Positions 28,792 through 55,914 of a stretch of 64,000 nucleotides of DNA are shown piece by piece. Location of the stretch: assembly GCA_030770535.1 (NCBI GenBank), contig JASVEC010000003.1, positions 744,001-808,000 of the forward strand, read 5' to 3'. The notes below the pieces were generated by a model. It ran no database searches. It was not told the origin of the DNA and saw nothing but the letters and a program-made list of their open reading frames with translations. Position 1 is the first letter of the stretch, and each line of letters begins with the position of its first letter. The position numbers and the translations under genes are program-made. The stretch is from Batkoa obscura (lineage: Eukaryota).

Positions 28792-29808
28792 ATGGCCAAA
28801 ACGAGCTACAAATTAATTAGTAATGAAGATAGAGAAAGAATCGTTAATGCCTATGTCAATGGGTCCAATGCAACCAGTATTTCTAAATTTTTTGGTTTCA
28901 ATGTGAGAACAGTTCAAAATATTGTAAAAAAATATATTGATGGGGAGGATTATAGAAGAAGACCAAAATTGAGTGGAAAAGAAGCTCCTAAGGTAATTAT
29001 GCCAGAATCCCAAAGGAAATTGATACAATCTTATGTTGAAAAAGACTGCAACATACCATTAAAAGAAATCAAAGAGAGATTAAAGAATGAAATGGAAGTA
29101 ACAGTAAGTGAAAGAATTATAACCATGAACTTAAATACGTTTAATTACTCTTTTAAACGTATTGATCCATCACTTCAAAGCAACGATTTAACTACTTTGG
29201 AGTTTCGGGCCTTTTATGCTAATACTTTTTTTAATAAAATAATCGAATTTATTGATTCTAAAGTTATCTTTATCAATGAAGCTACGTTTAATGTTTCAAC
29301 GCGTTTGAGAGAAAGTTCCACTGAAAGAAGAAAGACAGAAAAACAAGGTTTTAGGGCACGTATAATAAATACATCTATGTGTTGTGCTATGAGTATAAAT
29401 GGATTAGTTGAATACCAGTCTCAACTAAGGCGTTTTTTTACTGATACATTTAACCAATTTATTAAGTCTGTTGTTAAGAAATTACAAAAGATAAATATAC
29501 CCGAAGCTATAATAATTATGAATAATGCATATATTGAAAAAGATCCAAGCATCAAAGATCTTATTGAATCGAAAGGGCACAAGCTAATACGCTCACCACC
29601 CAACTCTTCATTTTTAAATCCTGTTGAAGGGATGTACGCTAAATGGATTCAATTAATAAGAGCAAAAGAAATAAAAAATGAAAAGGAATTATTTAAAGTA
29701 ATTGATAATATTCTATCAGAGATAAGCTCAAATGATTGTAGATATTTTTTTGAACAGATGCTTAGCTTTTTACCAAGATGTTTAAACCGTGAAGAAATAC
29801 TTAAATAA
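28792..29808 (+). CDS. IS630/Tc1-like (DD34E) transposase-derived protein, catalytically degenerate (outlier copy)
   Basis: HTH-HTH-DDE_3 layout. FINEA replaces FIDE, IMNNA replaces IMDNA, and PPNSSFLNPVE replaces PPYSPFLNPIE. Intact intronless ORF; no TIR seen. Confidence 0.85.
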   Translation: MAKTSYKLISNEDRERIVNAYVNGSNATSISKFFGFNVRTVQNIVKKYIDGEDYRRRPKLSGKEAPKVIMPESQRKLIQSYVEKDCNIPLKEIKERLKNEMEVTVSERIITMNLNTFNYSFKRIDPSLQSNDLTTLEFRAFYANTFFNKIIEFIDSKVIFINEATFNVSTRLRESSTERRKTEKQGFRARIINTSMCCAMSINGLVEYQSQLRRFFTDTFNQFIKSVVKKLQKINIPEAIIIMNNAYIEKDPSIKDLIESKGHKLIRSPPNSSFLNPVEGMYAKWIQLIRAKEIKNEKELFKVIDNILSEISSNDCRYFFEQMLSFLPRCLNREEILK

Positions 29809-31316
29809 ACAAAAATTACCTTTACAGTTTTTTTTTAGAATTTTCTAGTTTATAAATGTTCATATTAAATTGTCTATTTTATTATTTCTTTTTAAGTATT
29901 ATAATCAAGTTAATTTTTTTCCAATTTTTAAGGAGCCAATGGACTTGAAGTATTTTTTTACAGAATTTGAAGTTTAATGATGGCTAGATAGAAGATGGAA
30001 GTTAAGGATAGAATTAGAAGGAGAGGTAAGATTGAGGTGGAGTAAGATATAAACTATTGAATAATGGAAATTTACTCTAATTTAAAGGCATCTGTTTTTG
30101 ATAGATTAAAATAATACTAACCGATTTGTATTTAAATTTGCAAAAATTCATCAAAATATGTAGAGGTTGCGATTACTCAAAATGGGCAGTAGGAATTAAA
30201 AAACTTAACTTAGACACTGAAACGAAAATTTATTTTTCTATTTTAAACTTGAACTACTCTTTTAATAGCAGTTTCAGTAATTTAGATACTCCATAAGACC
30301 TCTCACAATTTGAAGCTAGTTTCCATAAGCTCAATGACACCGATTTTAGCCCTCTTTGCTGAATAGAAAACCTTTCTAATAAACAGTTTAATTCTATGAA
30401 TTCACAATTCAAAGTCTAAAATTTAAAAGGTTTAACTCCATTTGTCTTGCTTTTACCTAATATCTCAACTTGGTTTAATCCTTTTTTACAAAGTGTTTAT
30501 GTTAATATGGGTGCCGGACAAATAACCATAAGCTTACAAAAATATTAATAGTGATATGAAGTTAATTGAAGATACATCTTTTTTAGCTATATAATATAAT
30601 GTTTTATTTTATTAAAAGATCATTAGGTATTCTAAAACATCCATTTTATTAAACAGACGTTTTAAAAAGATCAATAAAATAGAGCTTATTAAATGCATTG
30701 AGATATTCATAGTACTGAATTAAATTTAATATAATGATATTCAATATTACAGATAATAATAACAATAGATTTATATAGCTTTTGGGTTTATATTACTTAT
30801 AAATATTTCTAAATAAAAAATCAATTTTTTTAACAAAAATATTAATTAAAAATAATAGTGAATTCTTATCAATTGTAAATTAATTTTTGAGATAGTATTT
30901 GCAAAAAAAATCAAGTATACACTATTTTACGTAAATTGATAAATGAAACTTAATAAAATAACTAAATAACTTATCTTTGTAAATAGGCATTTATTCAATA
31001 AAAGCATATAATTTTATAATATTAATTATTTGTATTACTTCACCCATTATTTTAAAAAAATTCCAATCCATTTTGACACTAACAAAATTCAACTCAAACA
31101 AAAGTAAAATCCTAAAAAGGTAATTTTGAACATTTTAAGCTATCGTTAATTTTATTTCAAACAAAATTAATAAACTCTCGAAGACTCAACAGGATATTAT
31201 TCATATCATCAATAATAAAATAGTTTATTGTTAATTTTTTTTATTGATTTATATCTCTTTATTTTACATTCATTTTAGATAGTTCCTTATTTCTTTATTT
31301 CTCTACTTTTTTAAAT

Positions 31317-31556
31317 ATGAACTTCTTCATCTATTGCATATTATTTCAATTGATAGTCGCGGTAACACCGGGAGATAAAGTAGGTTATAATTTACCACAA
31401 TTAGGTGAAAATCAAACTGGTATTAAAGGGGTACCAAGTAATCAAATATCAAATAGTAATCAAAATAGTAATAGTAATAATAACCAAAATAGTAATACGA
31501 ATAGTAATACCAATACTAATAATCAAAACGTTCAAAGCAGTCCAAATAAAAATACA

Positions 31557-31648
<92 letters not shown>

Positions 31649-53369: not shown

Positions 53370-54394
53370 TTAATAATCCAATATTGCTTCTTTTTTCGTA
53401 CATTTTGGTAGAAAACTGAGCATATTCTCATAGAAGTTGCTGCAGTCAGATCCTGATATTTCTGATAAAATACTATCGAACAAACCAAACAGATTTTTCT
53501 CATTTTGTGGATCTTTTTCTCTTATCAGCTGTATCCATTTAGAGTACATAAACCTAATAGGATTCAGAAACAAAGAGGCGGGCGCTAAGCAGATTAACCC
53601 GTGTCCGTTTGATTCAATAAGTCCTCTGATATTTAGATCTCTATCGGGATAATCATTATCCATGATTATCATGGCTTCTGATATGTTTGTTTGAGAAAAT
53701 TTGTGAATGATTGATTCAACAAACTGATAAAAGGGCCCAATATCAAATGGATTTACTTGAGTTATATGGTCAACTATACCGTTTTTACCCATCGCACAAC
53801 AGATTGATACGCTTTTCATTTGAAATCCAAGACCAAGGGGAGTAAACTTTTTGTTTTTTACTTCTTGTTTAAACTTTGAGCGCATCATAGTGGATAAGGT
53901 TGTTTCATTTACAAAAAAGTCTTAGTGTTACCAAACCTTGATATTTGGTTAAGAAAGATATTACTATAGTGAGATCTTATTTCCAAAGCAATAAAATCAT
54001 TATTTTGAGTAGCTGGATCGATACGCTTCAAAAAAAAGTTAAAGCTTTTTATATGTTTTGATATAGTTGACTTGCCAGCACTCATTCCCATTTCATTCAT
54101 GAGTTTCTCTTTTATTGTTTTTAATGCAATTTTACAACCTTCGTCAACCCAAGATTGAATAACTTTTTCGTGAGACTATGATATAGCTTTACTCTTAGGC
54201 CTTGCTGCTCGTGGTTGTTTAAGAAAAATTTTCCCTTCAGTATACTTTTTTATAATATCGTTGACAATTGAAGATTTAAAGCCCGTTACTCTGGAAATGT
54301 TGGTTTGGCTGTTCCCATTGGCATAAGCTTTAATAATCCTTTGTCTATCAACATTATTGGTACAGTTATATTTCTTTCAAATCGCAGATGACAT
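53370..54394 (-). pseudogene. Array copy 6, recent pseudogene
   Basis: ATG 54394, TGA at codon 6, and a frameshift in a homopolymer near 53910 just before FVNE; otherwise collinear with copy 3. Confidence 0.8.
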
Positions 54395-54738
54395 TTAAAA
54401 ATAGTAGAAAAGAATAAGACTATTTTTTTTACTTTAATCAATTTAAATAATTTTTATTGTCTAACATTAAAAATTATTTTACAGTTCAAAATTTTTGTTA
54501 AATTTAAACTTGATAAAAAATAATTACTGTTATAATAAAAGAATTGTTTTCACTGTTAATTTGTTAGCTCTGTATCATAATATTTCGTAGTTATGAAATT
54601 GTTTGCCTTATCTTTAAATTACCATAAGGTATTTAACTTACCAAAGGATAAGGATATGACATAGAAGTACATAAGAATTCACCAATTAGAAAAAAATTCT
54701 AAATTAGTATAATATTTGAAAGTATAACATAATATTTA

Positions 54739-55914
54739 TTAATCAAGTATTTCTTCTTTTCTACTACACTTTGGTAAGTAACTGAGCATGTGTCCAAAAA
54801 AACTATTACAGTCAGATTCTGAGACCTCTGAAAAAACGGCATCCATAATTTGAAATAATTCATTTTCATTTTGCGGATTCTTTTCTCTGACCAACTCTTT
54901 CCATTTGGTATACATACCTTCAACAGGATTTAAAAACGGTGAATTAGGTGGTAAGCATATTAATCTATATCCTTTTGATTCAATAAAATTTCTAATATCT
55001 GGACCTTGATTAATATGTTTCTTATCCATTATTACAACTGCCTCAGTTATATTGCTTTGTGTTAATTTGACAACGATTGATTCAATGTGTTGATGAAATG
55101 ACTCCATTTTAAAAGGCAGTGCTTGAGTTTGATATCCAACTATACCAACTTTACCCATAGAACAACGTATAGATATATTTTTTTTGCGTATCCCAAAGTA
55201 CTGAGGCGTAGTTTCTTTTTTAGTCAATAACTTTTTATTTGTATACATTGGAATAGTAAACGTTGCTTCATTAATAAAAATAACTTTGGATTCAATAGAG
55301 TTTAATATATCATTCATAAAATTGTTAGCATAAAAGGCCCGGCTTTCCAAAGCAACCACATCATTATTTGTAGGGTCGAATTTGATACGTTTAAAAGAAA
55401 AAGTAAATTTTTTCATATAACAAGATAATTGTGCCACAGGTATACTTAACTCCATTTCATTCATTACTTTTTCTCTTAATTCTTTTAATGAAATTGTACA
55501 ATCCTCATCAAACCAAGATTGCATTACTTTTTGTTGAAGATCGGATAAATATATTTTTGACTCTGGTACTACTTTTGGTTTTTTTAATCCCAATATTGTT
55601 TTTGATTTTTTTACTTGCTGTATTACTTTAATTCTTTTTAATGCTTTTGTCACTTTTGGTTTGAAGATTGTTTTTGATTTTTTTGGTTCGAATACCTCTT
55701 TTGGCTTCTTTGGTTCTCGTACCACTTTTGCATTTCTTGTATAATCTTTCCCTTCATGATACTTTTTGATAATTCCATGAACAGTATTATAACCAAAACC
55801 CAATGCTTTAACAATATCTTTCTCACTGAAGCCTTTGATGTATGAGTTGACTATTTGATGTCGTTCTTCAGTACTAGCTTGTTTAAATTTTATTTTTGGA
55901 AGTTGAGCTGACAT
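54739..55914 (-). CDS. IS630/Tc1-like transposase-derived protein, array copy 7 (intact, Lys-rich linker expansion)
   Basis: FINEATF, VMDKK, PPNSPFLNPVE; an insert of about 50 aa lies between the HTH units. Confidence 0.85.
   Translation of the reverse strand: MSAQLPKIKFKQASTEERHQIVNSYIKGFSEKDIVKALGFGYNTVHGIIKKYHEGKDYTRNAKVVREPKKPKEVFEPKKSKTIFKPKVTKALKRIKVIQQVKKSKTILGLKKPKVVPESKIYLSDLQQKVMQSWFDEDCTISLKELREKVMNEMELSIPVAQLSCYMKKFTFSFKRIKFDPTNNDVVALESRAFYANNFMNDILNSIESKVIFINEATFTIPMYTNKKLLTKKETTPQYFGIRKKNISIRCSMGKVGIVGYQTQALPFKMESFHQHIESIVVKLTQSNITEAVVIMDKKHINQGPDIRNFIESKGYRLICLPPNSPFLNPVEGMYTKWKELVREKNPQNENELFQIMDAVFSEVSESDCNSFFGHMLSYLPKCSRKEEILD

Follow-up and report, generated by a model that had tools for sequence, protein, structure and literature searches.

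A tandem family of probably domesticated and probably non-cutting DD34E transposase genes in the fungus Batkoa obscura

Domesticated transposases are mostly old, single genes. The CENP-B-like proteins Abp1, Cbh1 and Cbh2 of fission yeast are old and derived from pogo (DDE_1) elements, and the P-element repeats of Drosophila guanche are reportedly truncated, closely similar units that are said to lack terminal inverted repeats (TIRs) and to encode repressor-like proteins. The latter are tandem repeats derived from P elements (Miller et al. 1992, a title cited in PMC3072357 and PMC8616336), and Abp1/Cbh1/Cbh2 form a small fungal set of domesticated IS630–Tc1–mariner (ITm) transposases (passages of PMC10799480), tied to retrotransposon surveillance by a title cited there. 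The MAR domain of SETMAR (Metnase), with its DDN triad, no longer supports transposition yet dimerises and binds transposon ends (text in PMC6715855). In Paramecium, several domesticated, piggyBac-derived PgmL proteins without a conserved catalytic site are each essential and have an active partner (excerpts of PMC6143343).

Here we describe a family in the fungus Batkoa obscura, within a window of 64,000 nucleotides (contig JASVEC010000003.1, positions 744,001 to 808,000), that resembles each of these systems in part. Like ITm DD34E transposons, its members combine a paired-like double HTH with an RNase H fold and D..D34E spacing; unlike them, they carry Asn at the first catalytic position (D1), lack TIRs and lie in tandem rather than dispersed, with spacers duplicated alongside the genes. 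The SETMAR MAR domain is likewise an ITm transposase of the same fold in which a triad Asp has given way to Asn, but SETMAR is one gene, carries a SET domain as a fusion and is altered at the third triad residue, whereas this family is altered at the first Asp, has no fusion and comprises many diverged copies. The D. guanche repeats share the tandem arrangement of transposase-derived sequences but belong to another superfamily, and the copies described here are full-length and only 38–68% identical to one another. Compared with Abp1/Cbh1/Cbh2, the family is DDE_3-derived, tandem and subject to fast turnover.

Eight transposase-derived copies of the ITm type (DDE_3, D-D34-E spaced) were located by tblastn and six-frame reading, in agreement with an earlier sequence-only reading that had described seven tandem minus-strand copies plus one outlier, five of them intact reading frames of 338–391 amino acids. 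The open ORFs are copy A (28792–29808, plus strand; 338 amino acids, triad N-N-E), copy B (42683–43699, minus strand; 338 amino acids), copy C (45878–46897, minus strand; 339 amino acids), copy D (49044–50108, minus strand; 354 amino acids, including a 14-residue insertion in the interdomain linker) and copy H (54739–55914, minus strand; 391 amino acids, with the linker between its two HTH motifs expanded by about 50 residues and rich in lysine); B, C, D and H all have the triad N-D-E. Copy A is the outlier, inverted relative to the array and nearest to B (68% amino acid identity). The three pseudogenes, all on the minus strand, are E (about 50428–51324), heavily decayed by stops, frameshifts and a deletion; F (about 51670–52703), with several frameshifts and the motif FVNE; and G (53370–54394; triad N-D-R), with two stops in its N-terminal half and a frameshift near 53915. 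DNA identity between copies within the window reaches 78% at most. An alternative in-frame ATG of B lies further upstream, at 43819.

The non-coding spacer upstream of B (44086–45158) is homologous to a second copy upstream of C (47252–48327), at 65–67% identity with 28 indels, and the spacer upstream of G is homologous to that of D (72% over 309 nt). On this sequence evidence, the proposed expansion by tandem duplication is shown to have taken place, non-coding spacers being duplicated along with the genes; a tandem insertion of separate elements is disfavoured because the spacers are homologous. A second gene within the duplicated spacer was considered and dismissed, as the spacer has neither a conserved ORF nor an Rfam match. 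A short conserved element about 100–150 nt before the ATG of C (46990–47044, minus strand) matches B at 43799–43855, and also A in the multiple alignment, and may be a promoter element.

D1 is Asn, encoded by AAT, in all seven readable copies (E is too decayed to read), whereas it is Asp in 150 of 169 rows of relatives and, among 40 metagenome loci, in all 28 whose motif could be read. The second catalytic Asp (D2), spaced 34 residues from the Glu (D244 and E279 in copy C), is likewise Asn in A, and G has Arg in place of the Glu. The first reading had reported the D1 substitution in all seven readable copies and had noticed erosion of the DNAxxH and PYSP motifs; all seven aligned family rows lack both the DNxxFH His and the PYSP Tyr. 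More broadly, 13 of 63 positions that are near-invariant in 12 intact relatives (D1, the GR and RSRN loop, DNVxFH, the Tyr of PYSP and a linker Arg) are lost in every family row, whereas core structural residues are retained. In Mos1, Y276 (of YSPDL) lines the pocket for the flanking T (passages of PMC4344528). We infer that catalysis was lost through the change of D1 to Asn and the absence of this Tyr, which holds the flanking T in Mos1.

The ancestry of these proteins is nonetheless apparent in their paired-like HTH pair, RNase H-like DDE_3 domain and 34-residue spacing. All five intact copies exceed the Pfam cut-off for DDE_3 (PF13358; 35–66 bits versus 28.6) and have weak N-terminal HTH matches; Pfam gives only these domains, with no added effector. 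An AlphaFold model of copy C (pLDDT 82) fits the fold of Mos1, Sleeping Beauty and SETMAR, and the predicted structure is that of a complete mariner-type transposase. Net charge ranges from +6 to +23 and a basic linker motif, G-x-D-Y-x-R-x-P-K, is fixed across the family. The S-x-T-I pattern that relatives carry in the second recognition helix is gone in most copies, which could reflect lost rather than changed specificity.

Conservation at the remnant active site might suggest an altered, still partly active nuclease, with an N-D-E site able to nick or trap DNA: all five intact copies share N162 and E279 and four retain D244, and the DDN site of SETMAR nicks faintly with Mn2+, a nuclease role that is itself disputed (text in PMC6715855 and PMC4036204). 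We regard such an activity as very improbable. Two invariant active-site residues are unexceptional because 24% of all alignment columns (80 of 334) are invariant; moreover, A carries a second Asn, and no copy retains the His and Tyr neighbouring the active site.

Inverted repeats, which the sequence-only reading had failed to see in the flanks, are indeed lacking. The best inverted match per copy scored 9–14 against a shuffled 95th percentile of 13–15, and none of the eight copies rose above the shuffled null, whereas the same test gave scores of 27–102 for 13 of 18 intact relatives of near-full length. The TIR arms of these relatives had no match above the null within 27.5–57.5 kb of the window; a 15-nt match to a sub-repeat of one relative's TIR, just upstream of H (55933–55947), was no exception. 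A mobile element with TIRs is thereby ruled out. With neither an intact D-D-E triad nor TIRs with a TA target duplication, both features of active ITm DD34E transposons, the family is immobile in its anatomy.

In a midpoint-rooted tree of 24 rows (fragments P0019 and P0020 and copy E were left out), the window copies and those of Neoconidiobolus thromboides form one clade with support of 100/100 on a long stem (0.72); the sister position of P0009 is weakly supported (80/58). Because the family is monophyletic and shares its residue losses, the tree supports a single inactivation of D1 before all family duplications, as had been proposed from the letters, and independent inactivation of each copy is ruled out. 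Intact relatives, 30–40% identical to the family, come from Anopheles, the microsporidian Enteropsectra and metagenomes, and none was found in a collection of viral contigs. The family may be 'Gambol-like', a label to which only the DD34E spacing and the Anopheles relatives point.

Copy B is 94% identical to N. thromboides KAI9298879.1. By comparison, the A-like (188 amino acids, 77%) and H-like (122 amino acids, 82%) proteins of N. thromboides FSU 785 are far more diverged and are annotated only as partial, and no full-length orthologue of C or D is among the N. thromboides matches listed. Nor is there an orthologue outside this species among the best 150 homologues listed. Family members in the FSU 785 assembly occupy four contigs, hence extending beyond a single array, and further degenerate members (P0141 and P0019) lie on other contigs. 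The A-like and B-like proteins are on one contig, five accession numbers apart, which, read from accession order only, is consistent with a fixed locus; a search for homologues of the KIX-domain ORF in the flank returned no match. The N. thromboides matches listed include no active cognate transposase or Asp-bearing partner. We found no literature linking Neoconidiobolus with transposases or treating this dead DD34E family, and the three supplementary files of a fungal co-option screen (PMC10799480) do not mention thromboides.

The open ORFs are clearly under purifying selection after the loss of mobility, so that their proposed maintenance stands. Maximum-likelihood dN/dS is 0.19 (GY+F3X4; 0.225 with F1X4; 2dL = 287 versus omega = 1), although Nei–Gojobori values of 0.29–0.46 are only moderately low. 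Omega is 0.12–0.23 in all six partitions, each preferred over 1 (2dL 8.8–128.5), which places the dead catalytic domain under constraint along with the HTH domains. With the co-duplicated spacer as an internal neutral control, the B/C spacer alignment has 28 indels in 1,049 nt, 24 of frame-breaking length, whereas ORFs B and C differ by two indels in 1,014 nt, each of 3 nt and neither frame-breaking. A second haplotype of B differs by 18 synonymous and 7 replacement changes among the 25 differences listed, a selected subset (from 40 of 1,680 rows; p = 5e-5 against a transition-only expectation), and all seven listed replacements match N. thromboides protein P0001. Under neutral simulation at 0.1 changes per site, B stayed stop-free in only 2 of 150 runs; at 0.2, it did so in none of 150. 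As the inactivation of D1 is older than all duplications, this constraint acted on non-cutting genes without TIRs. We consider it very probable that the family consists of domesticated transposase genes: immobile, descended from one DD34E transposase, expanded in tandem and held by purifying selection. The earlier analogy with KRAB-ZFP arrays proved loose, because no silencing effector domain accompanies the HTH and DDE_3 domains and the RNase H fold is as constrained as the HTH domains.

Single copies seem dispensable, given three pseudogenes among the eight and the annotation of A-like and H-like proteins in FSU 785 as partial only. These same observations, together with the degenerate members on other contigs, would fit a decaying cluster with no present host function, in which low dN/dS is a legacy of some former phase or copy turnover keeps ORFs open. 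The RNA-like contig cover is compatible with that account too. Runs that we guess to be RNA, none being recorded as such, have contigs that, among the copies other than A, overlie parts of B, C, D, G and H; these contigs skip a GT-AG intron in the adjoining KIX-domain gene but cannot rank expression; a run from another study, under another organism label, covers B, C, D and H at 92–96%. Because non-coding spacers and pseudogene G are covered as well, this RNA-like cover is not specific to ORFs. (Over 50806–51322, inside pseudogene E, the DNA run has a contig and two runs of one organism label have none; we did not count this as evidence.) Absence of function is nevertheless improbable: constraint fell on genes already inactivated, the indel contrast and the neutral simulation both oppose it, and the B haplotypes still show a synonymous excess.

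As to what the proteins do, we tentatively favour a role, quite possible on present evidence, as non-cutting DNA-binding proteins that occupy transposon ends and dampen transposition. DNA would be bound through the two HTH motifs and the family-fixed basic linker, and the catalytic fold may be retained as a dimer or DNA-clamping scaffold; the proteins would therefore act by blocking transposon ends or by poisoning mixed dimers of transposase. Copy birth and death, along with diverging recognition helices, may mirror changing targets. Counting against this role, a fungus with no target transposon would have nothing to repress. Rather less likely, the proteins are chromatin or transcription regulators of the CENP-B/Abp1 kind, acting at sites of the host, possibly relics of old TIRs, without targeting any transposon at present. 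The evidence for purifying selection applies equally to such regulators, for which Abp1/Cbh1/Cbh2 give a fungal precedent (passages of PMC10799480); the lack of an active cognate element among the N. thromboides matches listed, the fixed linker motif and H's lysine-rich expansion would also suit them. Yet no effector domain has been added, the catalytic fold is as constrained as the DNA-binding part, and fast copy turnover would be less expected of core regulators.

Retention of the entire fold in several diverged paralogues also recalls the Paramecium PgmLs, which act with Pgm despite lacking a catalytic site (excerpts of PMC6143343), and the family might by analogy supply architectural subunits of a multi-transposase complex for programmed DNA rearrangement, its active partner encoded elsewhere. 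This we hold to be highly unlikely: in contrast to the PgmLs, the family is without an Asp-bearing partner in the listed N. thromboides matches, and dispensable copies fit essential subunits poorly. To our knowledge, no programmed DNA rearrangement occurs in the source fungus.

Here an apparently recently tamed, presumably non-cutting DD34E transposase has given rise to a multigene family, whose members are gained and lost, in an insect-infecting fungus of an early-diverging lineage. The array offers several natural variants, with pseudogenes as controls, for asking why a dead transposase is kept. Genome sizes in this fungal group differ hugely owing to transposons. Tc1/mariner DNA makes up 12–14% of Entomophthora muscae and Entomophaga maimaiga (passages of PMC10515909). 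An extension of the end-blocking role, which we think unlikely, is a 'decoy transposase' defence in which tandem dead DD34E transposases with diversifying recognition helices would each guard a different transposon end; if true, such a repertoire may help to explain the repeat-poor genome of the source fungus. If the family does guard transposon ends, it would constitute a protein-based, diversifying transposon defence in this fungal group.

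The window consists of AT-rich eukaryotic DNA in which host genes are split by introns, and it carries eight copies derived from DD34E (IS630-Tc1-mariner, ITm) transposases. Copy A (28792–29808) is an intact open reading frame (ORF) on the plus strand and copies B to H (42683–55914) lie head-to-tail on the minus strand, the arrangement of seven tandem copies and one outlier that the sequence-only reading had described. The five intact ORFs it had counted, 338–391 amino acids in length, are A, B, C, D and H; G has one frameshift and two stops, several frameshifts interrupt F, and E is heavily decayed. 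Intact copies match Pfam DDE_3 above the cut-off, with weak helix–turn–helix (HTH) matches, and an AlphaFold model of copy C (pLDDT 82; 22-row alignment) has Mos1, Sleeping Beauty and SETMAR as its best structural matches. As had also been read, the first catalytic Asp (D1) is Asn in all seven readable copies; the second Asp (D2) is missing in A as well, and the Glu in G. Among 169 related rows, 150 have Asp at D1 and 4 have Asn (one of these a family member); all 28 metagenome loci whose motif could be read, out of 40, have Asp there. We consider residual nuclease activity very unlikely.

Seven window copies and two proteins of Neoconidiobolus thromboides FSU 785 form one clade among related transposases (support 100/100, stem 0.72; 24 rows, midpoint root, F and G included with X at their breaks). 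The Asn predates all the duplications, in agreement with the proposal that one D-to-N change preceded the expansion. Across 12 intact relatives, 63 positions are near-invariant; of these, 13 have lost the residue in all seven family rows, 24 retain it throughout and 26 retain it in part of the rows. Shared losses are concentrated at D1, the linker Arg, the G-R and R-S-R-N loop, V-x-F-H after D2 and the Tyr of PYSP, which bears out the reported erosion of the DNAxxH and PYSP motifs. According to PMC4344528, the Tyr of YSPDL in Mos1 lines the flanking-T pocket; our alignment would equate family positions with such Mos1 motifs. The spacers upstream of B and of C share 65–67% identity across 1.1 kb and D–spacer–E aligns with G–spacer–H, so the duplicated unit was gene plus spacer, as expected of the proposed tandem duplication.

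Hallmarks of ITm elements, according to PMC13469147 and PMC8533490, are a paired domain, DD34E, terminal inverted repeats (TIRs) and TA. The inverted-repeat test gave nothing above null around any of the eight copies; applied to 18 intact relatives, it showed clear TIRs in 13, so the suggested lack of TIRs stands. By the features tested, triad and TIRs, the array is not an active ITm transposon. In three intact relatives from metagenomes (L003, L012 and L013), TIRs of 48–114 nt begin TA|CAGGGTTT and contain internal repeats of about 20 nt; these loci could serve as donors when inhibition is assayed.

Codon models gave an omega of 0.19 for the five intact ORFs (2dL=287 versus omega 1), or 0.225 with simpler frequencies; pairwise Nei–Gojobori values were 0.29–0.46 at dS of 0.65–1.2. 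All six partitions fell at 0.12–0.23, the dead catalytic domain being as constrained as the HTH part. The co-duplicated B/C spacer has 24 frame-breaking indels, versus none in ORFs B and C. The ORFs have thus been maintained, as had been claimed, under selection of the kind looked for in domesticated genes; because the Asn came before all of the duplications, the genes under this constraint were non-cutting and without TIRs. An array without current function is unlikely. Among 25 listed differences in the second haplotype of copy B (a subset; 40 of 1680 rows), 18 are synonymous and 7 are replacements, all 7 agreeing with P0001, a B-like N. thromboides protein (KAI9298879.1).

Contig cover concerns copies B to H in four of nine coded sequencing runs. 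Contigs of X1 and X2, taken as RNA by guess only, skip a GT–AG intron in the adjacent KIX-domain gene; no such joint occurs in the DNA run. In two haplotypes, the X1 and X2 contigs overlie portions of B, C, D, G and H. In X7, from another study and under another organism label, B, C, D, F and H are covered at 91–96%. The same runs cover the spacers, which counts against ORF specificity, and the contigs give no expression ranking. Over 41500–57000, X1, X2 and X5 each carry two haplotypes about 4–15% apart, which suggests a hybrid or heterokaryon; several joints connecting D with G in these runs hint at gene conversion, copy-number differences or misplacement between paralogues.

The nearest named proteins are those of FSU 785, which has at least six annotated family members on four contigs. 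Its full-length B-like member, P0001, shares 94% identity with copy B; the A-like (77%) and H-like (82%) members are partial, P0002 has no orthologue in the window, P0141 is degenerate and P0019 is a near-copy of P0001 at its start and then decayed. No full-length C or D orthologue occurred among the N. thromboides matches, and the protein collection searched contained no letter-for-letter match to any of the five intact window proteins, which places the window in N. thromboides or a near relative. Either the membership pattern reflects birth and death of copies, any one of which can probably be spared, or the annotation is incomplete. Among the best 150 of 20,783 profile matches there was no family member from another species. 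In four Anopheles relatives within the transposase family (P0045, P0050, P0075 and P0036), the first Asp is replaced by N, G, N and T, respectively, possibly through independent domestications; one is named as a ZAD-domain protein.

Between copy A and the array is a 1448-codon open frame (34815–39161, minus) with no Pfam match. Convergent with copy B is a Q/N-rich KIX_2-domain gene (39526–42000, plus; intron around 41968–42032), which is Med15-like. The duplicated spacer (44086–45158 and 47252–48327), covered by contigs of the guessed RNA runs, has neither a conserved ORF nor an Rfam match; a short plus-strand ORF in it (47814–47975) has two CxxC motifs: perhaps the remnant of a different gene, or else a non-coding RNA. 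A complete Ty3/gypsy-type retrotransposon (14962–22613, minus; gag 19526–22063, pol 15516–19553) has 468-bp LTRs that are 100% identical, indicating very recent insertion. In its pol, protease and RT are separated by a dUTPase-like domain (Pfam E=6e-5, with a score barely over the cut-off). PMC10515909 puts Ty3 elements at just 0.01% of the genome in N. thromboides.

The family proteins retain the two HTH motifs, are positively charged and share a fixed basic linker (G-x-D-Y-x-R-x-P-K); they would be non-cutting DNA binders, probably dimeric. The first recognition helix is common to A, B and C and different in D and H; the second is distinct in almost all copies. We tentatively favour, at a little under even confidence, a role in which they occupy transposon ends or poison mixed dimers. 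The weakest link is that neither an active cognate element, among the N. thromboides matches, nor a target site was seen in this fungus. A general role of these DNA binders in chromatin or transcription is possible, if doubtful. P-element repeats in D. guanche are reportedly a precedent. Others are the DDN domain of SETMAR (PMC6715855), Abp1/CENP-B (PMC10799480) and the Paramecium PgmLs (PMC6143343). PgmL-like scaffolding has only a slim chance of being the function here. The available portions of PMC9659126 and of the supplement of PMC7386202 contain nothing on a dead-transposase array family, and no description was found in the literature searched, which leaves out most subscription journals. 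We conclude that the array genes are real, under selection and probably domesticated.
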